DNA of 64,000 nucleotides from Nitrospirota bacterium (GTDB lineage: Bacteria; Nitrospirota; UBA9217): the NCBI GenBank assembly GCA_043731355.1, contig JAYTJE010000028.1, forward strand, positions 13,261 through 77,260, read 5' to 3'. Shown piece by piece: positions 3,973 through 56,561 of this stretch. The notes below the pieces were generated by a model. That model had not been told where the DNA came from. It worked only from the letters and a program-made list of their open reading frames with translations, and did no database searches. The first letter of the stretch is position 1. Each line of letters opens with the position of its first letter. The translations under genes were made by a program, and so were the position numbers.

Positions 3973-4692
3973 TTACCCTTCTGTATTCTGTCTCCTGTTT
4001 TCTGGCTCCTGGCTTCTTAGTTTTTCAAGCGCTTCCTTTGCCGCTTTTTGCTCAGCTTCCTTCTTGCTTTTGCCTGTTCCACGGCCAGAGACCCGCCCCT
4101 TGACCAGCAGTTCCACGTTGAACTGCTTCTGGTGGTCCGGACCGGTCTCTGAGGCGACGCGGTATTCAGGCAACTGCTTCAGGCGCTCCTGGCAGAGTTC
4201 CTGGAGCGCTGTTTTGTAGTCGAGACTGGCGCGTGAAGCGCAGCTTCTTTTTATCACGTCCTCAAAAAAGCGAAGGATGAAAGCTTCAGCGGCCTCCTTG
4301 CCTGCATCGAGGTACAGTGAGGCAATGAGCGCTTCCAGCGCATCCGCCAGCAGCGAGTCCTTGTCGCGTCCGCCGGTCTGTTCTTCGCCCTTGCCAAGCA
4401 GCAGGTAGGAACCGAGTGCCAGGGCGCGGCCGATCGCGGCAAGCGCGGGTTCGCTCACGATCGCTGCCCGGAGTCTCGAAAGATCTCCTTCGGTCGAGTC
4501 CGGGCAGGTCCTCATGAGATGCTCGCTGACGACGAGCGAGAGGACGGCGTCGCCGAGGAACTCCATCCGTTCATTGTGGTAGGGGGTCTTGTTCTCGTTG
4601 GCAAAGGACTTGTGCGTCAAAGCGCGTTCAAGGAGCCGGGGGTCCTTGAACGGGTGGAAAATGCTTTGCTCAAGCTCTGCGAGTGTGCGCAT
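3973..4692 (-). CDS. rnc: Ribonuclease III
   Basis: RNase III signature ERMEFLGDAVL plus C-terminal dsRBD (GPDHQKQF..GRGTGKSKKEAEQ). The ORF track extends to 4872, but the conserved N-terminus starts at MRTLAELEQ (nt 4692), 1 nt after the fabF stop. Confidence 0.85.
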   Translation of the reverse strand: MRTLAELEQSIFHPFKDPRLLERALTHKSFANENKTPYHNERMEFLGDAVLSLVVSEHLMRTCPDSTEGDLSRLRAAIVSEPALAAIGRALALGSYLLLGKGEEQTGGRDKDSLLADALEALIASLYLDAGKEAAEAFILRFFEDVIKRSCASRASLDYKTALQELCQERLKQLPEYRVASETGPDHQKQFNVELLVKGRVSGRGTGKSKKEAEQKAAKEALEKLRSQEPENRRQNTEG

Positions 4693-4693
4693 C

Positions 4694-5935
4694 TTAGTCC
4701 CGGAAGCGCTTGAACACGAGGCACGCATTCGTGCCGCCAAAACCGAAGGAATTGGACATGACGACATCAACCTGCGCTTTTCGGGCGGTGTGCGGGATAT
4801 AGTCCAGGTCGCATTCCGGATCGGGATTTTCAAGATTGATGGTCGGCGGAAGCACCCCGCGGTCCATCGCAAGAATGGAGATAACGGCCTCCACGCCGCC
4901 GGCGGCCCCGAGCAGATGGCCGGTCATGGATTTCGTGGAGCTTACCGGGATCTTGTAGGCATGCTCGCCGAAGACGCTCTTGATGGCAATGGTCTCGAGC
5001 TCGTCGCCGTACTTGGTGGAGGTCCCGTGAGCATTGATGTAGCCCATCTCCGACGGCGCCACGCCCGCGTCCTTGATCGCCATGTTCATGCAGCGCGCGG
5101 CGCCTTCGCCGTTCGGGGCGGGTGAGGTGATATGGTAGGCGTCTCCCGAGGCGCCATAGCCGACTATCTCGGCATAGATGCGGGCCCCGCGCGCGCGCGC
5201 GGTTTCTAGCTCTTCAAGGACCACCACGCCGGAGCCTTCTCCCATGATGAACCCGTCGCGGCCGGCGTCAAAGGGGCGGCTTGCGCGCCGCGGCTCGTCG
5301 TTCCGGGTCGAGAGGGCCTTCATGGCGTTGAAACCGCCCACGGCGGTCACGCAGAGGCACGATTCGGCGCCGCCCGCGATCATGGCGTCGGCATCGCCGC
5401 GCTGGATCCATTTAAAGGCATCGCCGATTGAGTGGGTCCCTGTCGCGCAGGCGGTAACGATGCTGATATTGGGGCCTTTAGCGCCGAAGCGCATGGAAAT
5501 ATTACCCGCTGCCTCGTTGATGATGATCATGGGGATAAAAAAAGGGGTCACTTTGCGAATGCCGCGCTCGAGATATATTTTGTAATACTTCTCGATGGCC
5601 GGGAGCCCGCCCATGCCCGCGCTGACGATGACGCCGACGCGCTCGGCATTTTCCGGCGTGATTTTGAGGCCGGACATATCCATGGCCATCTGGCTGGCCG
5701 CGATCGCGAGATGGATAAAACGGTCCATCTTCTTGACCTCTTTGGGCTCGATGTACTTTTCCGGCTTGAAGCCGTGGATCTCCCCCGCGATTTGCGTCGG
5801 AATCGTTTTGTCATCGAACTGGGTAATGGGGCCGATGCCGGATTTTCCGCTGATCAGGCCTTCCCAGCTTGCTTCCGTATCGAGCCCGACGGGCGTTACC
5901 ATGCCGACGCCGGTTACAACAACTCTTCTCTTCAA
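4694..5935 (-). CDS. fabF: 3-oxoacyl-ACP synthase II
   Basis: 413 aa KAS II; active-site region [12 protein letters not shown] and C-terminal HGTSTKYGD / GHLLGAAG motifs. Confidence 0.92.
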
Positions 5936-6057: not shown

Positions 6058-6291
6058 TTACTTCTTTGCCTTGACATAGTCGATCGCGTTCTGTACGGTC
6101 GCTATCTTTTCCGCATCTTCATCCGGGATCTCAACGCCGAATTCCTCCTCGAGCGCCATCACGAGTTCCACGGTATCGAGCGAATCTGCGCCGAGGTCGT
6201 TGACGAAGGATGCTTCAGGTTTCACATCCGCTTCCGGTACGCCGAGCTGCTCAGAAATGATCTTTTTTACCTTTGCTTCAATCTCTGCCAT
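6058..6291 (-). CDS. acpP: Acyl carrier protein
   Basis: 77 aa; phosphopantetheine attachment motif [11 protein letters not shown]. Confidence 0.92.
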
Positions 6292-6367: not shown

Positions 6368-7108
6368 CTACATGTACATGCCGCCGTTTACATGAATGAC
6401 CTGACCGGAGATGTACGAGGCCCAGGGTGATGCAAGGAACCTGACCGCATTTGCGACGTCCGCGGGAGTGCCGAGCTTGCCCAGGGGAATCTGCTTCGCG
6501 AGCTCTGTCCTGACCGTCTCGGACAGGGCCTGCGTCATGGCAGTTTCAATGAAGCCGGGGGCGACAGCATTGGCGGTAATGCCGCGGTTCGCATATTCAC
6601 GGGCGATGGTCTTGGTCAGCCCGATAAGCCCTGCCTTGGACGCCACATAGTTCGCCTGGCCGGCGTTGCCCATGGCGCCCACGATCGAGGCGATATTGAT
6701 GATCGTGCCGCCGCGCTGCTTGGTCATGTACTTGAGCGCTGACTTCGTGCACAGGAATGCGCCTTTTAAATTGATGCTGAGCACCAGGTCCCAGTCCTCA
6801 TCCTTCATCCTGAGGATAAGCCCGTCGCGGGTGATGCCGGCATTGTTTACCAAAATGTCTATTCTGCCGAATTTTTCGACGACCTGGTCGACCATGGCAA
6901 TCACGTCGGCGGAAGCAGCCACGTTCGCTTTGAGGGCCAGTGATTTTTTCCCCAGCGCTTCGATGTCCGCTGCTGTCTTCTGTGCCGCTTCGAGGTTCAC
7001 GTCGCAGATGGCGACGTCAGCGCCGTCCGTTGCGAGCGCCAGTGCAATGTCCCTGCCGATGCCCTGTGCGGCGCCGGTGACTAATGCTATTTTTCCGTTC
7101 AAGCTCAT
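6368..7108 (-). CDS. fabG: 3-oxoacyl-ACP reductase
   Basis: 246 aa SDR; TGAAQGIGR Rossmann motif and YVASKAG catalytic tetrad region. Confidence 0.9.
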   Translation of the reverse strand: MSLNGKIALVTGAAQGIGRDIALALATDGADVAICDVNLEAAQKTAADIEALGKKSLALKANVAASADVIAMVDQVVEKFGRIDILVNNAGITRDGLILRMKDEDWDLVLSINLKGAFLCTKSALKYMTKQRGGTIINIASIVGAMGNAGQANYVASKAGLIGLTKTIAREYANRGITANAVAPGFIETAMTQALSETVRTELAKQIPLGKLGTPADVANAVRFLASPWASYISGQVIHVNGGMYM

Positions 7109-7149: not shown

Positions 7150-7566
7150 TTATTTTTTCGAGCAGCTGCCGTCGATGCCGATCCCGTTCAGGGTGAACAT
7201 ATTGTATTTGACGTATTCACCCTTGCAGGAGACCCGGTCTCCTTTGTGCATTGCGGCCGCGTCCTTGCCATGAACGTCGACGACAAAGTTTTTGGAGCGC
7301 CCGGGAACATCCACCGACACCACGATCTTGACGCCCGTTTTTCCGGTCAGGACATCATGAACTTTTCCTTCGGCGGAGACCTGCTGCCCCTTCAGCGCTT
7401 TAAGGTATTGCTTGATGTCCGCCGAGGAATATTTCGATTTGTCCATGTGGTTCGCTACGACTGCGGCGGCAACCGGTCCCGCGTGGGCCGCAACCGGGGA
7501 CAAAACGGCCATACCCGCTGCAATGAGCATTGAAAACACGATTGTAAAAACAACCTTCATAATCAT
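7150..7566 (-). CDS. Small secreted protein (signal peptide; possible OB-fold/YgiW-like), inserted between fabG and fabD
   Basis: 138 aa; hydrophobic N-terminus ending AHA, two Cys near the C-terminus; no enzymatic motif. Confidence 0.5.
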   Translation of the reverse strand: MIMKVVFTIVFSMLIAAGMAVLSPVAAHAGPVAAAVVANHMDKSKYSSADIKQYLKALKGQQVSAEGKVHDVLTGKTGVKIVVSVDVPGRSKNFVVDVHGKDAAAMHKGDRVSCKGEYVKYNMFTLNGIGIDGSCSKK

Positions 7567-7600: not shown

Positions 7601-8536
7601 CTACGAAACGCCGAGGGCGTTTAGTGTTTCGTTCAGGCTCTTCTGATCTTCAACGTTCTGGATCTTCGCTTCTTTGGCGATCCGCTTTACCAACCCGGAA
7701 AGTACTTTGCCGGGCCCCACTTCGATAAACGTATCGACGCCGTCGGCGGCCATTCGTTTAATCGAATCTTCCCAGAAGAGAGGAGCGCTTATCTGTTTGA
7801 TGAGCGAAGGCCTCAATTCAGACGCTTTCCGCACATACCTGGCTTCGGCGTTATTGACGATCGGCATCGTGAGATCTCTGATGCTGACGGACTCCAGCTC
7901 TTTTGCCAGCCGGTCGCCAGCCGCCTGCATCATGGCGCAATGTGAAGGCACACTTACCGCAAGCGGCACTACTTTTTTTGCCCCGCGGGATTTGGCGAGT
8001 TCCATGGCCGCTTCCACGGCTTTTTTCTCGCCTGCTATCACGATCTGGCCCGGGGTGTTATAATTTGCAGGGGCAACTATACCATTTTTAGAAGCGTCAA
8101 GGCAAGTTTTTTCTACGTCCCGCCGCTCCATGCCGAGAATGGCCGCCATGAGTCCGGCGCCTTCAGGAACGGCCTCCTGCATGTACCGTCCGCGCTTTCG
8201 CACCAGCGCCACGGCATCGGTGAGGGACAGTCCCCCGGCCGCGGTGATCGCGGTATACTCGCCGAGGCTATGGCCTGCGGCAACGACGGCAGTGACCCCC
8301 CGCTTCGTGAGCGGCTTCAACATGGCAATACTCGACGCAAGGATGGCTGGCTGGGTATTTTCAGTGAGATTCAGCTTCTCAACAGGGCCCTGTATGCACA
8401 GGTGCGCCAGGTCGAAGCCAAGCACCGTGCTCGCTGCTTCGAAAACCTCGCGGGATTCCGCGAAGGTCTCATGAAATTCTTTGGCCATGCCCACGTATTG
8501 CGAGCCCTGGCCGGGAAAGAGAAATGCTATTTTCAT
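7601..8536 (-). CDS. fabD: Malonyl-CoA:ACP transacylase
   Basis: 311 aa; FPGQGSQ and GHSLGEY active-site motifs. Confidence 0.9.
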   Translation of the reverse strand: MKIAFLFPGQGSQYVGMAKEFHETFAESREVFEAASTVLGFDLAHLCIQGPVEKLNLTENTQPAILASSIAMLKPLTKRGVTAVVAAGHSLGEYTAITAAGGLSLTDAVALVRKRGRYMQEAVPEGAGLMAAILGMERRDVEKTCLDASKNGIVAPANYNTPGQIVIAGEKKAVEAAMELAKSRGAKKVVPLAVSVPSHCAMMQAAGDRLAKELESVSIRDLTMPIVNNAEARYVRKASELRPSLIKQISAPLFWEDSIKRMAADGVDTFIEVGPGKVLSGLVKRIAKEAKIQNVEDQKSLNETLNALGVS

Positions 8537-8549
8537 AGGTATGCCAGTC

Positions 8550-9749
8550 TCACTTGTATCCCCGGAGTTCCTTGAACTGCCTGATCATGACCGGCAGGAC
8601 CTCCAGAACATCGCCCACAATGCCGTAGGTGGCGACGCTGAAGATGGGAGCGTCGGGGTCCTTGTTGATCGCCACGATGACGTCGGACGACTGCATGCCG
8701 GCCACGTGCTGGATGGCGCCGGATATGCCGCACGCGATATAGAGTTTGGGACAAACGGTCTTGCCGGTCTGGCCCACCTGGTGCGAGTAGGGTATCCAGC
8801 CTTCGTCCACTGCGCCGCGCGTTGCGGCAACTGCGCCGCCCAGGACCCTGGCAAGCTCCTCGAGCAGATGCAGGTTCTTGACGCCCCCCATGCCGCGGCC
8901 TCCGGCCACAATAATGTTCGCCTCGCAGATGTTCACGGTCTCGCCCAGCTCTTCCACGGTTTTAATGACCCTGGTGCGGACATCGCCTGCCTGCGTGAAC
9001 TTCACGTTGACGATCTCTCCGGTTCTGTCATCGTTGCGGGGCGCCGGCTTCATCACCTTGTGTCTGACCGTCGCCATCTGCGGCCGATGATTGGGAGAAA
9101 CGATGGTGGCCATGATGTTGCCGCCGAAGGCCGGCCGGGTCTGGTGAAGGTTGCCGGTCTCGGGATCGATATCGAGCATGGTGCAGTCCGCGGTAAGCCC
9201 CGTATACAGCTTGGCCGCGACCTTGGGAATGAACGAACGGCCGATCGCTGTTGCGCCAGCCAGGATGATCTCGGGTTTGTGGAGCGTTGCAAGGGTGGTG
9301 AGCACGGCGCTGTAGGAGTCGTCGTTAAAATCCTTCAGGGCCGGATCGTCGGCCAGGTAGACAATATCCGCCCCGTGAGCGATGAGGTCCTTTGCCTTGT
9401 CCTTGATGCCGTGGCCGATGAATACGGCGGAAAGTTTTGCCTGGCGCTTGTCCGCAAGCTTTCGTCCTTCGCCGAGGAGCTCAAGCGCAACGCTGGATAT
9501 GCCGCCCTTGTGCTGTTCCGCAAAGACCCAAACGCCCTTAAATGCGGAAAGGTCCTTTGCCGCCGCAACGGCTTCTTCTCCGGTACGTTCGATGGATTTG
9601 AATTCGCATGCCTCGAGGCACGCGCCGCACAGGGTGCAGCTTTCCGTGATGAAGGCCTTTCCGCCCCGCATCTCGATGGCGCCAAAGGGGCAGGCGGATA
9701 CACAGGTCTCGCAGCCGGTGCAGGTGGTGGAAATGACTTGAACGCTCAC
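8550..9749 (-). CDS. etfA: Electron transfer flavoprotein alpha subunit with N-terminal 2x[4Fe-4S] ferredoxin domain
   Basis: N-terminal [12 protein letters not shown] and [12 protein letters not shown] clusters, followed by a canonical EtfA FAD-binding domain; 399 aa. Confidence 0.85.
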
Positions 9750-9851
9750 TATGAACTCCTTTTGAATCAGAGCAGGTAAGAGGGTAAGAGGGAAAAAAGG
9801 TACGAAAAAAATGCCTACCTTCTTACCTTCATACCATCCTACCTTCCCGGT

Positions 9852-10637
9852 TTACACCAACGATTGTTCTTTCAACTTTTTCACGACCTGCTCCACCTGC
9901 TGTTCGATCGTGCCGGACAGGATTTCCCGCTGGCCGCGAGGGACAGGCGGAAATATTCTGACGACCTTCGTGGGAGAACCTTTGAGCCCGAGCAAGTTCT
10001 CGTCAGCGTTGATATCTTCGGCCGTCATGGTCGTGACCTTGAGGTTTTTGGCTTTCATCTTGCCCTTCAGCGAGGGCAGCCGCGGCTGATTGATCTCTTT
10101 GACCACGGTTATCAGCGCCGGGAGGGAGGACTCCACCACATCGTACCCATCGTCCATCATGCGCTCCACCGTCATTTTACCGCCGCCGATGGCGGTAATT
10201 TTCTTGATGTAGGCTATGAAGGGAATGCCGAGCATGTCAGCGGTCTCGGGGCCTACCTGGGCGGTGTCGCCGTCGATCGCCTGCTTTCCCGCGATCACGA
10301 GGTCGTAGGAACCGAGTTTTTTAATGCCCTGAGAAAGGGCGTAGGACGTGGCCCAGGTGTCGGCGCCGGCGAACGCCCGGTCGGAAAACAGCACGACTTC
10401 ATCAACGCCCATGGCCACAGCTTCTTTGAGCGCGTCAGCGGCCTGCGGCGGGCCCATGGTCACGGCGGTCACCTTGCCGCCATGCCGCTCGCGCAAACGG
10501 AGCGCTTCTTCAAGGGCGAACATATCAAAGGGGTTGATGATGCTCGGGACGCCGTCACGGATGAGCGTGTTTGTTTCCCGGTTGATCTTCACTTCCGATG
10601 TGTCAGGCACCTGTTTGACCAGAACAATGATATTCAT
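9852..10637 (-). CDS. etfB: Electron transfer flavoprotein beta subunit
   Basis: 261 aa; MNIIVLVKQVPD N-terminus and the DGDTAQVGP motif. Confidence 0.85.
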   Translation of the reverse strand: MNIIVLVKQVPDTSEVKINRETNTLIRDGVPSIINPFDMFALEEALRLRERHGGKVTAVTMGPPQAADALKEAVAMGVDEVVLFSDRAFAGADTWATSYALSQGIKKLGSYDLVIAGKQAIDGDTAQVGPETADMLGIPFIAYIKKITAIGGGKMTVERMMDDGYDVVESSLPALITVVKEINQPRLPSLKGKMKAKNLKVTTMTAEDINADENLLGLKGSPTKVVRIFPPVPRGQREILSGTIEQQVEQVVKKLKEQSLV

Positions 10638-10650
10638 GGACGGTCTCCGC

Positions 10651-11808
10651 TTATTTCTGTCTCGTGGCTTCCTTGATCATGTCGAGGGCGATGACATTGC
10701 GCTGGATCTGGTTCGTTCCCTCATAGATCTGGAGGATCTTTGCGTCGCGCATCATCTTCTCGACGGGGTATTCTTTCATATAGCCGGAACCGCCCATGAT
10801 CTGGACCGCGTCCGTGGTGACCCGCATGCCCGTGTCGGTGGCGAAGAGCTTTGCCATGGCGGAAGCGCGGGAGAAATCCCTGGCCCCGCTGTCCATCATG
10901 CGGGCGACAGAATAAACAAGGGCGCGGGCCGCCTCTGTCTGGGTCTGCATGTCCGCAAGCATGTGCTGAATGGCCTGGAAGGAGGTGATGGGCTGGCCGA
11001 ACTGGACCCTGCCTTTGGCGAACTTCATGCACTCGTCGATGGCGCCCTGGGCCACGCCCACGCCCTGGGCGCCCACGCCCGCGCGGGAGCAGTCGAGGGT
11101 CTTCATGGCAACGATAAAGCCCAAACCTTCCTTGGCGATCAGGTTTTCCCTGGGAATGCGACAGTTGTTAAAGATGAGCTCGGTCGTTGATGATGCGCGG
11201 ATGCCCATCTTGTTCTCTTTTTTACCGAAGGTAAATCCGGGAGTGCCTTTTTCCACGATAAAGCACGAGGCCCCGCGGGCGCCCTTGGACTTGTCCGTGA
11301 TGGCAATGACGGTGTATACATGGGCCTCGCCGCCGTTCGTGATCCATTGTTTCGTGCCGTTCAGGACGTATTCATTTCCTTCGAGCTTAGCCGTGGTCTG
11401 CACACCGCCGGCATCGCTGCCCGCGTTCGCTTCGGTCAGGCCGAAGGCCGCGAGGTTCTTTCCTGATGCGATGTCCGGAAGATATTTCTTTTTCTGGGCG
11501 TCGGAACCGTTGAGCAGAATGGGGTACGTGCCGAGAGCGTTGGCTGCGTAGCTGGTGGAGACGCCGAGGCAGGCCTTCGATATTTCCTCGATGGCGATGT
11601 AGAGCTCGAAGCTTTTTTTGCCGAGACCGCCGTATTCTTCAGGAATATAGATACCGAAGAGGTCCGCCTGGGCCATTGCCTTCATAATGTCCGTCGGGAA
11701 CTTGTTCTGCTCGTCCAGTTCCGCCCGCACCGGCACGATCTTCTCGACCGCGATCTGGCGTGCGAGATCGCGTATCATGATCTGGTCCTCTGTCAACAAA
11801 TAATCCAT
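10651..11808 (-). CDS. Acyl-CoA dehydrogenase (short-chain / butyryl-CoA dehydrogenase-like)
   Basis: 385 aa; ACAD fold motifs (GSDAGG, QIYEGTNQIQR, catalytic Glu region YEGT). Confidence 0.85.
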   Translation of the reverse strand: MDYLLTEDQIMIRDLARQIAVEKIVPVRAELDEQNKFPTDIMKAMAQADLFGIYIPEEYGGLGKKSFELYIAIEEISKACLGVSTSYAANALGTYPILLNGSDAQKKKYLPDIASGKNLAAFGLTEANAGSDAGGVQTTAKLEGNEYVLNGTKQWITNGGEAHVYTVIAITDKSKGARGASCFIVEKGTPGFTFGKKENKMGIRASSTTELIFNNCRIPRENLIAKEGLGFIVAMKTLDCSRAGVGAQGVGVAQGAIDECMKFAKGRVQFGQPITSFQAIQHMLADMQTQTEAARALVYSVARMMDSGARDFSRASAMAKLFATDTGMRVTTDAVQIMGGSGYMKEYPVEKMMRDAKILQIYEGTNQIQRNVIALDMIKEATRQK

Positions 11809-11882: not shown

Positions 11883-12863
11883 TTACCACCGGACGAGCGC
11901 CGAGGCCCAGGTCAGGCCGCCGCCGAAAGCCTCGAACAGGAGGAGGTGGTCCTCCTTGATCCTTCCGTCGCGGACCGCCTCGTCCAGCGCCATGGGGATC
12001 GAGGCCGCCGAGGTATTCCCATAGTGAGGAAGGGTGAGCACGACCTTTTCCATGGGCATGTTCAGACGCTGCGCCATGGCCTGGATGATCCGCAGGTTCG
12101 CCTGGTGCGGAATAAGAAAATCGATCTCTTCCGGTTTCACCTTGTTGTGCTCCAGCGCTTCCTGAACGACGCCTTCGAGCGCCCGCACCGCGGTTTTGAA
12201 GGTTTCATTGCCTTTCATGCGGATGAAGTGCATTTTTTCGCGGACGGTATCGTGGGACGCCGGGTGTGAGGCGCCGCCCGCCGGGACATGGAGCAGGTCT
12301 CCGAACGCACCGTCGGAATGAAGATGCGTTGAAAGGATCCCGCGCTTGCCCGCGTGCCGCTGGATCACGACCGCTCCGGCCCCGTCGCCGAAAAGGATGC
12401 AGGTGGCGCGGTCCTCCCAGTCGGTGAACCGTGACAGGACCTCGGCGCCCACGAGCAGGATGTTTTTGTAGGCGCCGGACTTGATGAACGCATCGGCAAC
12501 GGACATCCCGAAGAGGAACCCTGAACAGGCAGCTGCAATATCGAAGGCCGCGGCATTTTTCGCCCCGAGCTTGTTCTGCAGCACACAGCCCATGCTCGGC
12601 AGGATGGTGTCCGGCGTCATCGTCGCCACCAGAATGAGATCCAGGTCCCGGGCTTCGAGTCCCGCGGCGTTCAGCGCTTTTTTGCCGGCTTCACAGGCAA
12701 GATCGGACGTGGTCTGGCCCTTTTCCACGACCCGGCGTTCCTTGATGCCCGTACGCTCGGTGATCCAGGCATCGCTCGTATCGACGAGCTTTTCCAGGTC
12801 ATGGTTGGTGATTATCTTTTTCGGGGCGAACGAACCCGTTCCTGTTATCCGCGCGTGGATCAT
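11883..12863 (-). CDS. fabH: 3-oxoacyl-ACP synthase III
   Basis: 326 aa; active-site AACSGF, plus HQANLRI and GNTSAAS motifs. Confidence 0.9.
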   Translation of the reverse strand: MIHARITGTGSFAPKKIITNHDLEKLVDTSDAWITERTGIKERRVVEKGQTTSDLACEAGKKALNAAGLEARDLDLILVATMTPDTILPSMGCVLQNKLGAKNAAAFDIAAACSGFLFGMSVADAFIKSGAYKNILLVGAEVLSRFTDWEDRATCILFGDGAGAVVIQRHAGKRGILSTHLHSDGAFGDLLHVPAGGASHPASHDTVREKMHFIRMKGNETFKTAVRALEGVVQEALEHNKVKPEEIDFLIPHQANLRIIQAMAQRLNMPMEKVVLTLPHYGNTSAASIPMALDEAVRDGRIKEDHLLLFEAFGGGLTWASALVRW

Positions 12864-13873
12864 TTTACTTTTGTATACTCCATATTCTTTTCAATGCCCT
12901 CGCTGAGGCGTTTGTTGATCTCGCTTTTCGCAAGTTCCGCGGCAACACGGACCGCATTTTTGATCGCCCGGTCGGAGGAGCGTCCGTGGCTGATGATGCT
13001 GATGCCGTTGATGCCGATGAGGGGCGCGCCGCCGTATTCAGCGTAGTCAATGCGGCGTTTGAGCGATCGAAAAACCGGCCGCATCATGACATAGCCGAGT
13101 TTCCGGATCAGGTTGTCGCCGATATTCTCGCGGATCATGAGCCCGATGGTCTCGGCAACGGCTTCGGAGATCTTGAGCACTACATTGCCGATAAATCCGT
13201 CGCAGACCACGACATCGGCGTTGCCGCTCATAACGTCGCGGCCTTCCACATTGCCGACGAAGTTGAGCGACGTTTCGCTCAGGAGTTTGAACGCTTCTTT
13301 CGTCAGTTCATTCCCCTTGGTCGCTTCTTCACCGATGGAAAGCAGGCCCACCCGGGGGTTCTGGTTCTTCAGGAGGTATTTCGAGTAGACCTCGCCCATG
13401 ATCGCGAACTGCAGGAGATGGTTCGGTTTGCAGTCCACATTCGCGCCGACATCCAGAATGATGCACGTGCCTTTCATGGTCGGCATGATCGTGGCGATCG
13501 CCGGCCGCTCGATCCCCTCCAGCTTGCCCAGGACGAAGAGCGAGGTGGCCATGGCCGCGCCGGTATGTCCGGCGCTGATAACCGCGACCGCTTCACCGCT
13601 CTTGACCAGTTCGTTGGCAATACGGATCGAGGAGTCTTTTTTTCTGCGGAAGACCGTGGCGGGCGAATCGAGCATGTCCACCACTTCGGTGGCATTCCGA
13701 ATTTCCAGAGGAAGCGCTTTTGCGTTGTGGCGCTTGTCAAGCTCTTCCCGGATTACCTGTTCGATGCCCACCAGGATGATGCCGACGCCGAATTCCTTCG
13801 CCGCCTGAACGGCGCCGGCAATAACGGCCTGGGGCGCATTGTCCCCGCCCATGGCATCAACAGCGATCTTCAT
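12860..13873 (-). CDS. plsX: Phosphate acyltransferase
   Basis: 337 aa; MKIAVDAMGGD N-terminus typical of PlsX; 4-nt overlap with fabH. Confidence 0.9.
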   Translation of the reverse strand: MKIAVDAMGGDNAPQAVIAGAVQAAKEFGVGIILVGIEQVIREELDKRHNAKALPLEIRNATEVVDMLDSPATVFRRKKDSSIRIANELVKSGEAVAVISAGHTGAAMATSLFVLGKLEGIERPAIATIMPTMKGTCIILDVGANVDCKPNHLLQFAIMGEVYSKYLLKNQNPRVGLLSIGEEATKGNELTKEAFKLLSETSLNFVGNVEGRDVMSGNADVVVCDGFIGNVVLKISEAVAETIGLMIRENIGDNLIRKLGYVMMRPVFRSLKRRIDYAEYGGAPLIGINGISIISHGRSSDRAIKNAVRVAAELAKSEINKRLSEGIEKNMEYTKVK

Positions 13874-13952: not shown

Positions 13953-14135
13953 TTATATCTGCTGGACGGTGATGACTTCGCGGCCATTGTAGGTGCCGCA
14001 GGAAATGCAGGCATGGTGAGGTTTTTTGACCTCCTGGCACTGCGGGCAGATCGTGAGGCTTGGGGCGTCGAGGTGTTTATGCGTGCGCCTCTTGTCTCTG
14101 CGTGACTTGGATGTTTTGTGTTTTGGATTCGCCAT
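13953..14135 (-). CDS. rpmF: 50S ribosomal protein L32
   Basis: 60 aa, basic; CPQC...CISCG zinc-ribbon motif. Confidence 0.85.
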   Translation of the reverse strand: MANPKHKTSKSRRDKRRTHKHLDAPSLTICPQCQEVKKPHHACISCGTYNGREVITVQQI

Positions 14136-14153: not shown

Positions 14154-14669
14154 CTATTTTTTGAATAGGTCCTTTAGTGCGGAAAAGGCCCCGAATGTTC
14201 CTTGAGCAGCTCGATTGCAGTCACACCCTGCTTTATTGAGGTCCTTGCCGCAGACGGGGCAGAGCCCTTTGCAATTTGCATCATGAAGCGGGACCATGGG
14301 AACGGCGATGAGCAGCTGCTCCTTGATAATGGCGGCAGGCTCGAGCTCTTCGCCATGATAAAATTCCGTATCAAGCTCCGACTGGTTGAGCTCGTGTTCT
14401 GTCGAAGACTCCACGGCACTGGCCGGGGCCAGCTCAACGCTCACCTCGGCGTCGATCGTATAAGGAAAAGAACTCAGGCAACGGCTGCACTCGAGCAACG
14501 GTTCAGCCTGTATCCTTCCGGTGACATGAAACAGCCCGGCGCCCGACGGTTTGAAGTTCAGCACAGCCGTAAATGCCGTTGATGCCGCGCCTTTGTCGAA
14601 CAGATCAAGCGTATGGGCAAGTTCCAGGGTAAGCCCCTCTGGAGGTATGTCATTGATCTTGATAGTCAT
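14154..14669 (-). CDS. yceD: YceD/DUF177 family protein (large ribosomal RNA subunit accumulation protein)
   Basis: 171 aa; conserved position upstream of rpmF-plsX; C-terminal CxxC...CxxC. Confidence 0.75.
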   Translation of the reverse strand: MTIKINDIPPEGLTLELAHTLDLFDKGAASTAFTAVLNFKPSGAGLFHVTGRIQAEPLLECSRCLSSFPYTIDAEVSVELAPASAVESSTEHELNQSELDTEFYHGEELEPAAIIKEQLLIAVPMVPLHDANCKGLCPVCGKDLNKAGCDCNRAAQGTFGAFSALKDLFKK

Positions 14670-14754
14670 TTTAGCTGCTCCGGGGGCTGTAAGTCTCGAA
14701 TTATATAGAGAACACCCCGTCTTGTCAAGAAAAAAGACTTTTGCCGGAAGAAGC

Positions 14755-29763: not shown

Positions 29764-30420
29764 ATGAAGAGAATCATCGTAGTAACAGTAGCATTGGCAT
29801 TTGTGCTCCTGAGCGCGGGCGCGGCACTTGCCGGCATCGCGAACAGCAAGCACGACATGAGGACCTACCTGATCGGACAGACGCTCGGATACGACGAAGT
29901 CTGCGTCTATTGCCACACGCCGCACAGCTCATCGATGCAAGCTCAGCTCTGGAACCACTCAGTTTTGACCACGCCTACTTACACAGTCTACGGATCTGCG
30001 ACCATGAATGCCACGACAGGCCAGCCGGGAGCTGGATCGTTGATCTGCTTGGGCTGCCATGACGGCACCGTTGCTGTTGATGTCATGGTCAATACTCCGA
30101 ACTACGGCGTCGCAGGAACGGATAATGGCGTTCTTACTGCTACTCTCAAAATCGATCCCACAAGAGGCGCATATTTGGGCCTCGACCTCGGGAACGATCA
30201 CCCGGTCGGCTTTACCTATGATGCCACACTTGTAACCAATGACGGCTCGCTTGTTGATGCGGTGACCGTGGGCGGCAGCACCTATGTACGCATTATCGGT
30301 GGCGTCGGTGGTAAGGTGGAGTGCGCAAGCTGCCACGATGCTCACAATACTGTCACGATGCCTTTCCTGAGAAGCGCCAACGCGGGCTCGGCTCTCTGCC
30401 TGCGGTGCCATATCAAGTAA
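29764..30420 (+). CDS. Tetrahaem c-type cytochrome (secreted)
   Basis: Signal peptide; four CXXCH motifs (CVYCH, CLGCH, CASCH, CLRCH); strong AAGGAGGAAG RBS. Paralog of 46703. Confidence 0.8.
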   Translation: MKRIIVVTVALAFVLLSAGAALAGIANSKHDMRTYLIGQTLGYDEVCVYCHTPHSSSMQAQLWNHSVLTTPTYTVYGSATMNATTGQPGAGSLICLGCHDGTVAVDVMVNTPNYGVAGTDNGVLTATLKIDPTRGAYLGLDLGNDHPVGFTYDATLVTNDGSLVDAVTVGGSTYVRIIGGVGGKVECASCHDAHNTVTMPFLRSANAGSALCLRCHIK

Positions 30421-30448
30421 GCTGAGGATACGAACATAGCAGGTTCAA

Positions 30449-30477
30449 GAGGGGAGGAGACTCCCCTCTTTTTTTTT
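30449..30477 (+). terminator. Rho-independent terminator
   Basis: AGAGGGGAGgagaCTCCCCTCT hairpin followed by T9. Confidence 0.7.
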
Positions 30478-30752
30478 AAGTCTTGTCGGGTGTTTGGGTT
30501 GTTGCCGAACCAAAAAGGTTTGACTTTATAATGATGGCGTGATAACTTACCAAAACCTGCGTTGTAATAGTTATTAAATAATCACAAACCAGAGGGGCCG
30601 CTGAGATGCCGGTTGATGCGTTCGCAAAAAGTCATAATCCACCAGACGCGGAGACACTGAGAAATGCTTTTTAAATTACGAAGTTTTTCACCGCGTTCTC
30701 AGTGGTTCGATTCGACTTGTTACGAATCCATCAGATTTAAAGGGGAGTGGAA

Positions 30753-31829
30753 ATGCATAAACATAAACACGGTTTACTGATAATTCTGATACTGAGCTTG
30801 CTTTTTGGGTGCGCGACAAAAGCGCCGCAAAAACCGCTGCTCGCGTGGCCCTCATTGCCGGCTCCGCCGCGGATAGCCTATGTGGAGAGCTACCGCGGTT
30901 CGATAGATTTTTTCGTGCCCAGTTTCCTTGATGTTATCTTAGGCGCCAGCCAGTCAGTAAAAAACGACATTAACAAGCCTTTTGCCGCAGCCGCTTACGG
31001 CGACAAAATATATGTTTCCGACACAGGTTTTGGATACGTGGTCGTGATCGACACAAAAGCGCGGAAGGTGTCTTTCCTTGGGGCAAGCGGAAGGGCTGTT
31101 TTGAAAAAGCCCCTTGGTGTCGCCGCCGCCGCTGACGGAACGATCTATGTCTCCGACGGAAGCCTGAACAGTATTTACGCCTTTGACCGGAACGGCGAGC
31201 TTATGCTGGCATTTGGAAAGCCCGGTGAGTTTGCAAGGCCTGCGGGGCTTGCCGTCAACAGCGAGCTGGGACGGCTCTATGTGTGCGATGTCGCGGTAAA
31301 TGCGGTTTTTGCCTACTCTCTCAAGGGGGAACGTCTCTTTGAGTTCAAAAAAGGAGCAGAGCCTGGAGAAGGCTACTTCAATTCTCCGACCCATATTGCC
31401 ATTGACAGGAGAAATGGAAATGTCATCGTTGCTGATACGAATAATTTCAGGGTGCAGGTTTTTGACAAGGATGGCGCATACCTGAGAAAATTCGGGCAAT
31501 TGGGCGACAATCCCGGGGATTTCAGCAGGCCCAAAGGCATCGCTGTCGACTCCGAAGGCCATGTCTACGTGGCCGACGCCGCTTTTAATAATTTTCAGAT
31601 ATTCGACGACACGGGAAAACTGCTGCTGTCTATAGGAAGCATGGGACAGGGCGCCGGACAATTTATGCTGCCCGGCGGCATGTATATTGATGAACAAGAC
31701 CGGATCTATGTCGCTGATGCCCTCAACAGAAGGATCGAGGTTTTCCAGTATCTGAGCGAGGCTTGGAAGCAGTCTCATCCCGAGGAGTATAAAAAATACC
31801 TTCTACCGGAGGCGGCGGTTATTAAATGA
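30753..31829 (+). CDS. NHL-repeat lipoprotein
   Basis: Lipobox LLFGC; six repeated NHL-like units (YVSD/YVAD/YVCD ... G.F..P.GIA); AGGGGAG RBS. Confidence 0.7.
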   Translation: MHKHKHGLLIILILSLLFGCATKAPQKPLLAWPSLPAPPRIAYVESYRGSIDFFVPSFLDVILGASQSVKNDINKPFAAAAYGDKIYVSDTGFGYVVVIDTKARKVSFLGASGRAVLKKPLGVAAAADGTIYVSDGSLNSIYAFDRNGELMLAFGKPGEFARPAGLAVNSELGRLYVCDVAVNAVFAYSLKGERLFEFKKGAEPGEGYFNSPTHIAIDRRNGNVIVADTNNFRVQVFDKDGAYLRKFGQLGDNPGDFSRPKGIAVDSEGHVYVADAAFNNFQIFDDTGKLLLSIGSMGQGAGQFMLPGGMYIDEQDRIYVADALNRRIEVFQYLSEAWKQSHPEEYKKYLLPEAAVIK

Positions 31830-46702: not shown

Positions 46703-47470
46703 ATGCTAAAGAAGCGAGCGTGGATAGTTCTGATGACGGCCTGCATGATCCTGGGCGTTTATGGAATGGCTGTCGGCCTTCCTATTATGGGCAGCAAGCA
46801 TGACTTTTCGATTTCCGGTGGGGGTAATTTTGGCGGGGCCAATTTTCAGCTGGCGAATGGTGCTCCCGTTGAGGAAATATGTGTGTTCTGCCACACTCCG
46901 CATAATGCCGCTGCGCCGGGGGCGTTTCTCTGGAACCGGACCGGCACAGTCGCGACCGGTTACACCATGTATTCAAGCTCCACACTCACCTCGGCGATAA
47001 ATATGGGCACGGCTCCTACCGGCTTGACGCTCCTGTGTATGAGCTGTCACGACGGTATAACCTCCATAGCGGTTGGAACGCTTATCAATGCTCCCTATTA
47101 TGTAAATGGCCGCCAGCAGGTTGTGCTTTCCGACCCAGTCAACGGATACAGTAAAATAGGCGATCTTTATAATGGTACCATTATAGGCTGGGGCGCAAAT
47201 ATCGGCAACAAAGTTCCAGGTGTGGGCGACACCATAGCAGATCTTTCAAATGACCACCCGGTATCCTTTACGTGGGTTTCCGGCATCACCGGCATTAAAG
47301 AGCCAACCAGCACTTCGACAGGAGCCTGGGCAACAGGGCCGGAGCTTAAGCTCTTCGGCGGCAGGATGGAATGCTCTACCTGCCACAACGTGCATGATTC
47401 AGCGACCCAGCCTTTTTTAAGGATGTCTAATGTCAGCAGTAATATGTGCTTGGCATGTCACAATAAGTAA
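46703..47470 (+). CDS. Tetrahaem c-type cytochrome (paralog of 29764)
   Basis: Signal peptide; SKHD...CVFCHTPH...LWN N-terminal motif shared with 29764; four CXXCH. Confidence 0.8.
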   Translation: MLKKRAWIVLMTACMILGVYGMAVGLPIMGSKHDFSISGGGNFGGANFQLANGAPVEEICVFCHTPHNAAAPGAFLWNRTGTVATGYTMYSSSTLTSAINMGTAPTGLTLLCMSCHDGITSIAVGTLINAPYYVNGRQQVVLSDPVNGYSKIGDLYNGTIIGWGANIGNKVPGVGDTIADLSNDHPVSFTWVSGITGIKEPTSTSTGAWATGPELKLFGGRMECSTCHNVHDSATQPFLRMSNVSSNMCLACHNK

Positions 47471-47512
47471 TTAATGATATAATTGATTTTTATGGCTATC
47501 TCGGAGGTGAGT

Positions 47513-50251
47513 ATGAATAGGAAATTATACCTGATGGGCGCGGTTATTCTGGCAACACTGCTGCTTCTGTTGCCTGGCGCCGGCTATGCGGCCCCTTCGC
47601 TGATCGGCGCTGTTACGGATGCCGTGGATAGACCTGCCTCTGTTGCTCTGGACTCGCAAGGAAATATCTATGTCTCCGAGACGGCAAACGACCTGCTGAA
47701 GGTATACAGCCGAAAAGGCAAGCTGCTGAAACAGCTAAGTATTCAACGCCCGCTTGGTGTGGCGGTTGATGCCTCGGGTTCTCTCTATGTAGGTTCCGGA
47801 GGGAGGCGCGCTGTAGATGTGTACGCTCCCGATTATACCTATGTCCGCAGTCTTGGCGCAGGGAAGGGTGAAGTCTCCCGGCCGGGATCAATAGCAGTGG
47901 ATGGGGCTGGAAGGGTGTATGTGCTTGACGCTGCGACGAGTATGGTCCGCGTGTATGATGCTTCAACCGCGCTGATGCTCTTCGCGTTCGGCGGCAGCGG
48001 CGCCACAGACGGTCTTTTCAACAGACCGATGGCGCTCGCCGTAAGCGACACTCTTGGCGAGATATATGTTGCCGAGCTCCGGAAGACGGTAATCTCCAGC
48101 GGCGCTACCATAGATGGGGCAAAAATTCAGGTGTTCGACAAAGCGGGCGCCTTTAAGAGGTCGTTCGGTGACTATGGCCTCGAAGCGGGGAAAATCGGCA
48201 AACCGGTCGGTATGGCTTTAGACGGCTCCGGTAATATTTTTATCCTTGATCTCATTCAGGGCGCTGCGCTTTCTTTTGATGCAACGGCGGGGACCTTCAA
48301 CAATACCGCGCTGTATAAGACGGTAAGCTCGATGCCTCTCGGAATCGCGATTGGTAAAAACAAGATCGCTTATGTATCGCAGGCAAACGCCCGGATCATA
48401 GATATCTATGGACTTGACGGCTACACGACCATGGATGAGACGCCAACTGCCCTGACCTTCGAAAGTAAACAGCTGAGCGCAAACGCTCAGGCGCAAACTG
48501 TTACGATCACTAACGCTGGAAATGGTTCTTTAGGATGGACAGCAGCGGCTGATAGTGACTGGATAACCCTGGGTGCAATGAGCGGGATCGCGGGTCCGAG
48601 CAGTTCAAGCAGCCTTGTTGTTGGTACGAACAATGCGAACCTGAAAGCGGGCACGTATCAGGGTGTGGTAACGGTAACTGCTGATTTCGGCCAAATAGAT
48701 AAGATTCCCGTAACCCTTACGGTGACTCCCGCGGCGACGATTGGCTTCAGCAATGGATCGATTGCTGTTGTAGCCAAAACTGGCAAAACGCCGGCTGCGC
48801 AGCCGATAACGATCAATGTGCAGAATGCCGCCTCGCTTCCCTGGACGGCTTCTTCTGATGCTTCCTGGCTTGGCCTTTCCACGGCCAGCGGCACCGCGAC
48901 CACGGTATCGGCCCTCTTTATTAATATGACGAATATCGCGCCCGGAACGTATACCGGGCATATCACGCTTTCTGCGCCGGGCGCAATCGGAAACGGGGGC
49001 AAGCTGACCGTCAGTCTCACGGTGACGCAGGGTACCAGGATCAGCGTGACCTCGAATATCCCGGATGCCCGGTTTACGGTTGCTGGTGCTACCACCTCCT
49101 ATACGGGTTCCGGCACGACATGGAGCGTCGAGGGGGCCCCTCTGGGTGATTACACCATTACCTTTGATGCGGTAAACGGATATCGCAGACCTCTTTCTCA
49201 GACGATAAGCCTGAACGATGCGGAGGTTACCGCCACGGGAAACTATCGTTCTTTGGCTGATATCGCTGACCGCACGAATATCATTGCAGGCAGGGAAGAT
49301 CATGAGAATAACAGCTCGAAAATAAAAATTTACAAGAACGACGGGACCCCGGTTGCCGCTCAGGTGTCTTTTGGCGCGGATGGCAAATCCGGCGCGCTCG
49401 CGGCGTCGGCGGATGTTGATGGAGACGGCACGGCGGAGCTTATCGTGGTAAGCCGCGTTGGCGCGAACAAACCCTCCGTTGTGCGGGTGCTTAAATCCGA
49501 TGGGACCATGCTGGCTGAGTTTGCGCCCTATGCGATGCCCGGCGGTATTAACGTGGCAGCGGGCGATCTGAACGGCGATGGCAGAGCGGAGCTTGTGGTC
49601 GCCCCCGCGGGGAACGAGAGAAGCGCCCCGGTCAAAGTATATGCCTACCAGGCGGATGCAAAAGCACTGGTGGCGACAGGAATTGAACTTACCACGTTTG
49701 GATACGATCAGGCCGTTGTAGTCGCTGTTGCGGATACGACGGGCAATGCGGCGCCGAAGCTTATTGCCGCGTCGCAGCAGGTTATGAGCGTCTGGACGAT
49801 TGATTCAACAAAGGGCGCGGGAAACTGGACAGCCTCGCTGCTGAACGACTTCAAGTTCATTGCCAGGGGAGAGGCTTCACTCTCGGCCGGAGATGTTGAC
49901 GGCGACGGCACGGATGAAATCATTGTCGGTGAAGGCCCGGGCGTCGTCAAAGCCTCCTCGTATAATTCCGCATCAAGAGTTATGCTATTTAAAACCGACG
50001 GTACTTCGGTCGGTGGGTTTGCCCCCTTCGCAAACTTTCCTTACGGCGTGAGCGTGGCGGCGGCCGATCTGACCGGCGACGGCATTGCTGAAGTGGTTGT
50101 CGGGTCCGGCGAGGCTCAACGCTCGTCAAAAAACAATAAAACGTCAAAAGTCAGCATCTTTAACGCGGCGGGAAAACTGTTGAAAACCATAACGCCCTAC
50201 GCAAATTCGCACAGCGGTGTTAATGTCACGGTTGGAGAGATGGGATTATGA
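47513..50251 (+). CDS. Large secreted NHL-repeat / beta-propeller protein with C-terminal FG-GAP-like repeats
   Basis: Signal peptide; N-terminal NHL units (YVSE/YVGS/YVLD/YVAE); central Ig-like segment; C-terminal repeated D.DGDG..E..V motifs (VDGDGTAELIVV, LNGDGRAELVVA, VDGDGTDEIIVG, LTGDGIAEVVVG). GGAGGTG RBS. Confidence 0.75.
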   Translation: MNRKLYLMGAVILATLLLLLPGAGYAAPSLIGAVTDAVDRPASVALDSQGNIYVSETANDLLKVYSRKGKLLKQLSIQRPLGVAVDASGSLYVGSGGRRAVDVYAPDYTYVRSLGAGKGEVSRPGSIAVDGAGRVYVLDAATSMVRVYDASTALMLFAFGGSGATDGLFNRPMALAVSDTLGEIYVAELRKTVISSGATIDGAKIQVFDKAGAFKRSFGDYGLEAGKIGKPVGMALDGSGNIFILDLIQGAALSFDATAGTFNNTALYKTVSSMPLGIAIGKNKIAYVSQANARIIDIYGLDGYTTMDETPTALTFESKQLSANAQAQTVTITNAGNGSLGWTAAADSDWITLGAMSGIAGPSSSSSLVVGTNNANLKAGTYQGVVTVTADFGQIDKIPVTLTVTPAATIGFSNGSIAVVAKTGKTPAAQPITINVQNAASLPWTASSDASWLGLSTASGTATTVSALFINMTNIAPGTYTGHITLSAPGAIGNGGKLTVSLTVTQGTRISVTSNIPDARFTVAGATTSYTGSGTTWSVEGAPLGDYTITFDAVNGYRRPLSQTISLNDAEVTATGNYRSLADIADRTNIIAGREDHENNSSKIKIYKNDGTPVAAQVSFGADGKSGALAASADVDGDGTAELIVVSRVGANKPSVVRVLKSDGTMLAEFAPYAMPGGINVAAGDLNGDGRAELVVAPAGNERSAPVKVYAYQADAKALVATGIELTTFGYDQAVVVAVADTTGNAAPKLIAASQQVMSVWTIDSTKGAGNWTASLLNDFKFIARGEASLSAGDVDGDGTDEIIVGEGPGVVKASSYNSASRVMLFKTDGTSVGGFAPFANFPYGVSVAAADLTGDGIAEVVVGSGEAQRSSKNNKTSKVSIFNAAGKLLKTITPYANSHSGVNVTVGEMGL

Positions 50252-50280
50252 TGCGCATAATGCACGAAGGAGCGGCGACT

Positions 50281-52494: not shown

Positions 52495-52505
52495 GGAGGA
52501 TGACA

Positions 52506-56480: not shown

Positions 56481-56508
56481 ACGATACCCGCATCACACCT
56501 GTTGAGTT

Positions 56509-56538
56509 AGCCCCGCCCTTTCGGGCGGGGTTTTTGTT
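56509..56538 (+). terminator. Rho-independent terminator after the mega-cytochrome gene
   Basis: GCCCCGCCC-tttc-GGGCGGGG hairpin followed by TTTTTGTTT. Confidence 0.7.
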
Positions 56539-56561
56539 TGGCATTGTAAACAAGGAGTGAA

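Follow-up and report, generated by a model that had tools for sequence, protein, structure and literature searches.

Described enoyl-thioester reductases and the locus under study

The enoyl-acyl carrier protein (ACP) reductase (ENR), known in the forms FabI, FabK, FabL, and FabV, represents the most variable step of bacterial fatty acid synthesis (FAS) and is a major antibiotic target. The locus described here lies in a stretch of 64,000 nucleotides from a Nitrospirota bacterium (GenBank assembly GCA_043731355.1, contig JAYTJE010000028.1, positions 13,261 to 77,260 of the forward strand), which is referred to below as the window. It contains a fab operon in which the genes acd, etfB, and etfA are located between fabH and fabD, encoding a flavoprotein of the acyl-coenzyme A (CoA) dehydrogenase (ACAD) family and the two subunits of an electron-transfer flavoprotein (ETF), of which EtfA holds a fused ferredoxin domain. 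It is likely that this ACAD-EtfB-EtfA module functions as the enoyl-ACP reductase of type II FAS, as suggested by its sequence relatives, by its linkage to fab genes across phyla, and by the replacement of FabK by the same module at one position of collinear gene clusters.

The Bcd/EtfAB complexes, which contain butyryl-CoA dehydrogenase (Bcd) and have been solved from C. difficile (5OL2) and A. fermentans (4L1F, 4KPU), share with this module the ACAD, EtfB, and EtfA composition, the catalytic Glu, and the DGDTAQVGP motif. The same chemistry is expected for both, in which NADH drives the reduction of an enoyl thioester and ferredoxin is reduced in a coupled reaction. However, Bcd is encoded in a crt-hbd-thl context, while the module is part of a fab operon, and the Bcd ETFs lack the additional domain with two [4Fe-4S] clusters that EtfA exhibits here. 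Both solved Bcds also carry a one-residue insertion in helix E that is missing from the ACAD family of this module, a sister clade, and the Bcd substrate is crotonyl-CoA, in contrast to the enoyl-ACP of C4 to C16/18 proposed for the module. A second related system is CarCDE from Acetobacterium woodii (6FAH), in which CarE aligns end-to-end with EtfA (420 bits) and CarD with EtfB (258 bits). The ACAD, however, is nearer to Bcd than to CarC (414 versus 313 bits), and the module is found in a FAS context without genes for caffeate activation.

FabK, the FMN-dependent enoyl-ACP reductase II, occupies the same fabH-[X]-fabD slot and has the same cellular role as that proposed for the module. Nevertheless, both are non-homologous, since FabK consists of one TIM-barrel protein with FMN and does not reduce ferredoxin, whereas the module is a three-subunit FAD/Fe-S complex. 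The SDR-type reductases FabI, FabL, and FabV carry out the reaction proposed here with an unrelated fold and cofactor. Precedents for ACADs that act on phosphopantetheine-tethered substrates are MbtN, RedW/PigA, and the prolyl-ACP dehydrogenase 4IRN, which exhibit the same fold, but these enzymes are oxidative and belong to secondary metabolism, and the ACAD reaches only 86-253 bits with them versus family cut-offs of 500-700. FabX from Helicobacter pylori is likewise an Fe-S flavoprotein that is encoded in a fab context and acts on acyl-ACP. This protein is nonetheless a member of the NMO/FabK family, not an ACAD, and works as an oxidative dehydrogenase/isomerase for unsaturated fatty acid (UFA) synthesis.

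Organization of the fab cluster

The cluster is encoded on the minus strand in the order yceD-rpmF-plsX-fabH-ACAD-etfB-etfA-fabD-(138-aa open reading frame, ORF)-fabG-acpP-fabF-rnc, and comprises the following elements:

14700..14728, minus strand: sigma-70-type promoter-like site, TTGACA-17-TATAAT, 12/12 positions (consensus scan)
14154..14669, minus strand: yceD (DUF177), first gene of the cluster (PF02620)
13953..14135, minus strand: rpmF, ribosomal protein L32 (PF01783)
12860..13873, minus strand: plsX, phosphate acyltransferase (PF02504)
11883..12863, minus strand: fabH, beta-ketoacyl-ACP synthase III (TIGR00747, 450 bits versus a cut-off of 292)
10651..11808, minus strand: acd, ACAD-family flavoprotein of 385 aa, proposed catalytic subunit of the enoyl-ACP reductase (Pfam, NCBIfam)
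9852..10637, minus strand: etfB, bifurcating-type small ETF subunit of 261 aa (Pfam, NCBIfam, structure-sequence matches)
8550..9749, minus strand: etfA, 399 aa, GTG start, fused N-terminal ferredoxin domain (Pfam, CarE alignment)
7601..8536, minus strand: fabD, malonyl-CoA:ACP transacylase, starting 13 nt past the etfA stop codon (TIGR00128, 341 bits versus a cut-off of 261)
7150..7566, minus strand: 138-aa ORF with a signal-peptide-like N-terminus (no Pfam or NCBIfam match)
6368..7108, minus strand: fabG, 3-oxoacyl-ACP reductase (TIGR01830, 336 bits versus a cut-off of 298)
6058..6291, minus strand: acpP, acyl carrier protein (PF00550)
4694..5935, minus strand: fabF, beta-ketoacyl-ACP synthase II (PF00109, PF02801)
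3973..4692, minus strand: rnc, ribonuclease III, the usual end of the cluster (ORF call and family match)

All gene assignments are backed by Pfam and NCBIfam, with FabD, FabH, and FabG scoring above curated equivalog or subfamily cut-offs, and an identical public contig of 13.5 kb (L001) shows the same genes by a separate gene call. From yceD to fabF, the consecutive junctions measure 18, 79, -4, 74, 13, 102, 13, 34, 41, 76, and 122 bp. Those of the module are the 74 bp between fabH and acd, the 13 bp between acd and etfB, the 102 bp between etfB and etfA, and the 13 bp between etfA and fabD.

The single perfect sigma-70 match revealed by the consensus scan (14728-14700) is located between the upstream MFS gene and yceD, and this TTGACA-17-TATAAT site is a candidate for the operon promoter. 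The same scan gave no promoter match at the fabH-acd and etfA-fabD junctions. No terminator match isolating acd-etfBA was observed either; hairpins are as frequent as in shuffled controls, and the minus-strand ones fall within genes. A GGAGG ribosome-binding site is situated 6 nt 5' of the ACAD ATG, and the 74-bp spacer that precedes this gene is AT-rich. At the other end, there is no room for the module to be uncoupled from fabD, because the junction between etfA and fabD spans only 13 bp. It is proposed from this layout that acd-etfBA is transcribed together with plsX-fabH and fabD-fabG-acpP-fabF. The 138-aa ORF downstream of fabD is present only in the identical contig L001 and missing from the closest relatives L002 and L008, indicating a lineage-specific insertion in the operon that probably lies outside FAS function.

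The cluster holds genes for FabD, FabH, FabG, FabF, ACP, and PlsX without a gene for an ENR. No FabI-, FabK-, FabL-, or FabV-like gene was detected within it, and the scan of 20 further ORFs (200-420 aa) of the window revealed no ENR family. When E. coli FabI was used as a tblastn query, it matched FabG alone, both in the window and in 80 related loci, while S. pneumoniae FabK matched nothing in the window and a single gene in the 80 loci, which is NMO2 of the actinobacterial locus L047 (see below). The ACAD and the ETF are unrelated to the FabI/FabL/FabV (SDR) and FabK (NMO) families, and any ENR role of theirs is a matter of analogy, not of family membership.

An earlier note, made from the DNA sequence of the window alone, had described this gene order with acd-etfB-etfA between fabH and fabD, co-directional genes with short or overlapping junctions, two [4Fe-4S] motifs at the N-terminus of EtfA, a DGDTAQVGP-type motif of bifurcating ETFs in EtfB, and a cluster devoid of fabI, fabK, fabL, and fabV. 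All these elements have been found in place on the minus strand, with junctions of -4 to 122 bp and with both kinds of motif at the residues given below, and the lack of known ENR genes is borne out by the family scans and the two tblastn searches. The note had also named an independent promoter or terminator isolating acd-etfBA from the fab genes, in combination with a canonical ENR elsewhere, as something that would speak against its interpretation, and no promoter or terminator match separating them has been found.

FabK and the module at one position

The genomic contexts of NMO2 relatives revealed four collinear actinobacterial clusters with the order coaD-x-yceD-rpmF-plsX-fabH-[X]-fabD-fabG-acpP-NMO2-fabF-rnc-smc-ftsY. 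FabK is the X gene of L082 (Aquicultorales) and L085, with 488 and 494 bits versus the NCBIfam equivalog cut-off of 453. The X of L047 and L087 (Candidatus Oleimmundimicrobium; L087 from GCA_030651595.1) consists of ACAD-EtfB-Fd-EtfA (Fd, ferredoxin domain), and there is no FabK ortholog in the locus. The flanking genes are 47-73% identical, and the two clusters of the closest pair, L085 and L047 (73% in fabF and 69% in fabG), differ in X. The cluster of Desulfitobacterium (L083) also exhibits the order fabH-FabK-fabD, with a FabK of 539 bits. Since the flanks are collinear and X is either FabK or ACAD-EtfB-EtfA, the module alternates with a bona fide ENR at one position, and the module of the window occupies this same fabH-[X]-fabD position. 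Judged from gene order and family scores, this is an in situ non-orthologous displacement of the enoyl-ACP reductase. Among the 120 best-ranked relatives of FabK from L085, none is named for Oleimmundimicrobium, which constitutes weak negative evidence regarding a FabK elsewhere in the actinobacteria with the ACAD type of cluster.

A FabK paralog, NMO2, is encoded between acpP and fabF in the clusters of anaerobic Actinomycetota and Desulfitobacterium (L047 15167-16147; L087 9001-9987; L085 9001-9969; L082 10001-10981; L083 10001-10945). It scores 196-218 bits versus the FabK cut-off of 453, with the L047 copy at 196, and conserves a four-Cys insert, CxxCLxxCxxN[YF]C, that is missing from the co-resident FabK. 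These features may point to an Fe-S flavoprotein that takes part in fatty acid synthesis in a FabX-like or another way.

Linkage to fab genes in related genomes

Relatives of the module were sought in one genome per GTDB species. At least 592 ACAD relatives were obtained, and the best 80 loci were kept. The ACAD gene is located at most 6 kb from fab genes in 39 of these 80 loci, a recurrence among related species genomes that rules out a chance juxtaposition, and in 34 of the 39 the ETF genes also lie within 6 kb. According to the labels of the metagenome-assembled genomes (MAGs), the carriers of fab-linked modules belong to Nitrospirota, Thermodesulfobacteriota/Deltaproteobacteria, Actinomycetota, Rokuibacteriota, Saganbacteria, Omnitrophota, and Planctomycetia. 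The fab-linked loci show four or more distinct gene orders, and the arrangements include:

fabH-acd-etfBA-fabD-fabG-acpP-fabF: Nitrospirota, Rokuibacteriota, Actinomycetota, and unclassified MAGs
fabH-acd-etfBA-fabG-acpP-fabF, without fabD: Deltaproteobacteria/Thermodesulfobacteriota
fabG-acpP-fabF-acd-etfB-x-etfA: a complete Omnitrophota chromosome of 1.14 Mb (CP070655.1, L061) and one Planctomycetia MAG
fabF-rnc-acd-etfBA: L068 and L074
Broken cluster with pieces still beside fab genes (fabH-acd; acd-etfBA-fabD; etfBA-fabD a few kb from acd): Thermodesulfovibrionales

The closest ACADs, 95-96% identical, come from soil Nitrospirota MAGs. Identity is 87-96% in the closest Nitrospirota loci (L002-L008) and 88-98% among the best 120 database matches. 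L002 and L008 belong to Microflora Danica Nitrospirota MAGs with contigs of 2.05 Mb and 2.35 Mb. The ACAD is conserved at least as well as the core FAS enzymes; in the comparison with L040, for example, the values are 71% for the ACAD, 62% for FabH, 56% for FabD, and 67% for FabF, and in L008 the ACAD is 96% identical while the flanking FabD and YceD are 90% and 83% identical, respectively.

Several loci show peculiarities. In L053, L060, L071, L073, L076, L080, and related deltaproteobacterial loci, acd-etfBA is found in the usual place of fabD, and no fabD has been detected in the locus. Omnitrophota and Planctomycetia conserve an ORF of 272-282 aa between etfB and etfA (L061 12040-12888, L079 12101-12919), the L061 copy of which has no NCBIfam match. 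In the Nitrospirota MAG locus L014 (11165-14126), four unrelated ORFs, including coiled-coil and SEC-C-motif-like proteins, split acd from etfB, with the module still inside the fab cluster. Recurrent non-fab neighbours in Thermodesulfovibrionales, assigned by sequence reading, are hpt, queD, tldD, and genes for an alcohol dehydrogenase and an aldolase. Bacillota hold a free-standing acd-etfB-etfA, and none of the ten Bacillota neighbours examined is thl, hbd, or crt. No genes for a thiolase, crotonase, or 3-hydroxyacyl-CoA dehydrogenase were identified among the window ORFs scanned or the recurrent neighbours examined, and no CoA-transferase gene was identified among these neighbours or the ten from Bacillota.

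Sequence features of the three subunits

The N-terminal, middle, and C-terminal domains of the ACAD family (PF02771, PF02770, and PF00441) are all present in the ACAD with scores over the gathering thresholds. Its best solved relatives are the Bcd of the C. difficile bifurcating complex (5OL2_C, 414 bits) and the A. fermentans Bcd (4L1F, 395 bits), CarC reaching 313 bits, and in a neighbour-joining tree the ACAD family is sister to the characterized Bcds. The catalytic Glu363, found in a YEG motif and encoded at nt 10720-10722, corresponds to Glu376 of the medium-chain acyl-CoA dehydrogenase (MCAD; residue numbering checked against PDB 1EGE) and is invariant in 81 of the 81 family members. None of the NCBIfam acyl-CoA equivalogs reaches its cut-off with the ACAD. 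The best NCBIfam matches of the three subunits are AcrC (474 bits versus a cut-off of 640), AcrB (246 versus 475), and AcrA (360 versus 600), and the AcrA profile spans no ferredoxin domain. Among members of the superfamily that act on carrier proteins, RedW gives 253 bits, PigA 241, and MbtN 86, and the prolyl-ACP dehydrogenase 4IRN is also matched.

Residues 1-393 of EtfA align with CarE (6FAH_A, 420 bits), including the ferredoxin domain. Within this domain, where Pfam Fer4 families match, the motif CxxCxxCxxxC occurs twice (aa 10-20, nt 9690-9722; aa 38-48, nt 9606-9638). EtfA scores 286-421 bits with 6FAH, 4KPU, 5OL2, 7KOE, and 7QH2, and 152 bits with the human ETF. The best matches of EtfB are CarD and the beta subunits of 5OL2, 7QH2, 7KOE, and 4KPU (209-258 bits), with the human ETF at about 100 bits. 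Its DGDTAQVGP motif is located at aa 122-130 (nt 10248-10274) and is also found in the aligned 6FAH_B and 5OL2_B; we take this region to bind the second (beta) FAD where non-bifurcating ETFs hold AMP. Across the family, DGDTAQVGP is found in 46 of 48 EtfB proteins and the two [4Fe-4S] motifs in 43 of 45 EtfA proteins. The three sequences identify the module as an enoyl-thioester reductase of the Bcd/CarC type that is paired with an ETF of the bifurcating type.

The search for features specific to the fab-linked enzymes yielded 21 ACAD positions that are conserved in the family and unlike four acyl-CoA reference enzymes. Residues of the MCAD pocket floor are small in the ACAD family (Q95 replaced by S/A/T and E99 by A), but they were discarded as markers of ACP versus CoA or of long- versus short-chain substrates because the Bcds are equally small there. 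The helix-E indel was rejected as a marker of fab-linked ACADs, as all 81 members are devoid of the one-residue insertion, including the free-standing Bacillota copies.

Proposed mechanism

A mechanism for the module can be postulated from its homology with Bcd-EtfAB and CarCDE. NADH would reduce the beta-FAD held by EtfB, at which the electrons would bifurcate. One electron would then reach the FAD bound by the ACAD by way of the alpha-FAD in EtfA, and two such rounds would reduce trans-2-enoyl-ACP to acyl-ACP, with Glu363 as the predicted proton-transfer residue. The other electron, of low potential, would exit to ferredoxin via the two [4Fe-4S] clusters fused to EtfA. In this scheme, the enzyme would act on an ACP thioester, in the reductive direction, and with the following net reaction:

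enoyl-ACP + 2 NADH + Fd(ox) -> acyl-ACP + 2 NAD+ + Fd(red)

An energy-limited anaerobe would in this manner get back one reduced ferredoxin per elongation cycle, and each C16 acid would require 14 NADH and return seven reduced ferredoxins. The redox potentials established for Bcd-Etf, about -10 mV for the enoyl/acyl thioester, -320 mV for NADH, and about -420 mV or lower for ferredoxin, make bifurcation feasible. If the module is an ENR, it is probably NADH-dependent and ferredoxin-reducing; for both properties together, the ENR role and bifurcation, we see close to an even chance, on the analogy with the solved complexes. It is a still more tentative proposal, slightly short of an even chance, that many strict anaerobes (Nitrospirota/Thermodesulfovibrionia, Thermodesulfobacteriota, anaerobic Actinomycetota, Omnitrophota, Planctomycetia, Rokuibacteriota, and others) end each cycle of type II FAS with a bifurcating ACAD/ETF reductase, which would represent a further, non-homologous class of ENR.

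Alternative explanations

The earlier note had put forward two explanations for the position of the module, an ETF-dependent enoyl-thioester reductase acting in synthesis and a beta-oxidation-type chemistry co-regulated with FAS, and had suggested comparing the synteny in related genomes. The linkage found by this comparison in 39 of the 80 loci, across phyla, together with the alternation with FabK in the slot, favours the former explanation, with ACP thioesters as presumed substrates, while the latter loses ground, as no crt, hbd, thl, or other beta-oxidation genes appear near the module in the neighbours examined. A rival explanation is a conventional enzyme of the Bcd type, an enoyl-CoA reductase or acyl-CoA dehydrogenase using CoA thioesters, that would be located in the fab operon for co-regulation only, for instance to provide butyryl-CoA or other primers for FabH, or as part of a short-chain acyl-CoA pathway. 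The closest solved relatives of the ACAD are indeed true butyryl-CoA dehydrogenases (5OL2_C and 4L1F), its top NCBIfam match is the acryloyl-CoA reductase AcrC, it keeps the residues equivalent to MCAD D253 and R256, which are presumably near the bound CoA, and no ACP-specific feature has been identified in it. This explanation is nevertheless quite improbable, given that every NCBIfam acyl-CoA equivalog remains under its cut-off, that no beta-oxidation or butyrate partner genes were identified beside the module in the recurrent clusters or among the ten Bacillota neighbours, that the module alternates with the ACP-specific FabK in a collinear slot, and that the linkage to fab genes outlasts several rearrangements across phyla. 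An ENR that does not bifurcate, using NADH alone as in the acryloyl-CoA reductase of C. propionicum, or reduced ferredoxin as a donor through the fused Fe-S domain, is also unlikely. The acryloyl-CoA reductase complex of C. propionicum is reportedly non-bifurcating, and its subunits AcrC, AcrB, and AcrA are the best NCBIfam matches of the three proteins. On the other hand, the three Acr scores are well under their cut-offs and the AcrA profile has no ferredoxin domain, the nearest solved ETFs all belong to bifurcating complexes, and the motif of the beta-FAD region is conserved family-wide.

An ENR-like enzyme working backwards can serve UFA synthesis, as reported for FabX (PMC8626469). An oxidative acyl-ACP dehydrogenase of this kind, which would introduce the double bond for anaerobic UFA synthesis while the ETF removes the electrons, would fit the alpha,beta-dehydrogenation typical of ACADs and a cluster that shows no FabA, FabB, or FabM. 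However, this role is very unlikely, given that the module takes the place of FabK, a protein that passes the ENR equivalog cut-off and is not FabX-like; moreover, no isomerase partner is evident, and on thermodynamic grounds an oxidation via a bifurcating ETF would be expected to use up reduced ferredoxin. That the module is a passenger inserted in the operon without any functional link might be argued from the insertions that the operon tolerates, such as the lineage-specific 138-aa ORF and the four unrelated ORFs inside the L014 module. Such a reading is hardly credible and can be set aside, because several phyla show the linkage, in four or more architectures, and the identity of the ACAD is high in the closest loci (that in L008 exceeding those of FabD and YceD).

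Returning to an ACAD/ETF enoyl-ACP reductase, several observations weigh against it. The searches for a canonical ENR extended over the window and, in the related loci, over flanking DNA of up to 10 kb, and such a gene may be encoded in other parts of these genomes. NMO2, which is retained in the clusters of L047 and L087, could in principle supply ENR activity. Roughly half of the 80 loci have no fab neighbour, as in the hpt-queD-tldD-acd arrangement of Thermodesulfovibrionales and the free-standing Bacillota copies, and the shared synteny is partly inherited, since these 80 loci are the ones nearest to the query. In addition, the ACAD shares about 60% identity with true butyryl-CoA dehydrogenases, and the comparison of the 21 family positions and of the MCAD pocket residues gave no feature that distinguishes ACP from CoA use. 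Finally, an internal promoter could hide in the AT-rich spacer of 74 bp between fabH and acd.

Implications for bacterial fatty acid synthesis

If the module acts as proposed, an ACAD/ETF reductase would add a non-homologous enzyme class to the known ENRs, and fab clusters without an ENR gene could be explained, provided that their carriers prove to be devoid of FabI, FabK, FabL, and FabV. To our knowledge, electron bifurcation has so far been described in catabolic and energy metabolism, and it would thereby reach a core anabolic pathway. Instead of being dissipated, the drop of about 300 mV from NADH to the enoyl thioester would be captured in the form of reduced ferredoxin, and membrane-lipid synthesis would return low-potential electrons to energy conservation or CO2 fixation. 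Full-text searches of the literature available without subscription revealed neither an account of ACAD/ETF modules located in fab operons nor one of an ENR that depends on an ETF.

Other features of the window

An Rfam scan of the full window gave no family at the gathering score. On the plus strand, the region 46703-58034 holds a cluster that resembles an extracellular electron-transfer system, and among its products are proteins of 922 aa (NHL/FG-GAP/BACON), 748 aa (cytochrome c7-like), and 1400 aa (with an MtrC/MtrF-like domain), in addition to a paired-CXXCH cytochrome and a PD40 beta-propeller protein. The region 29764-31829 encodes a second CXXCH cytochrome, a small one, together with an NHL protein.

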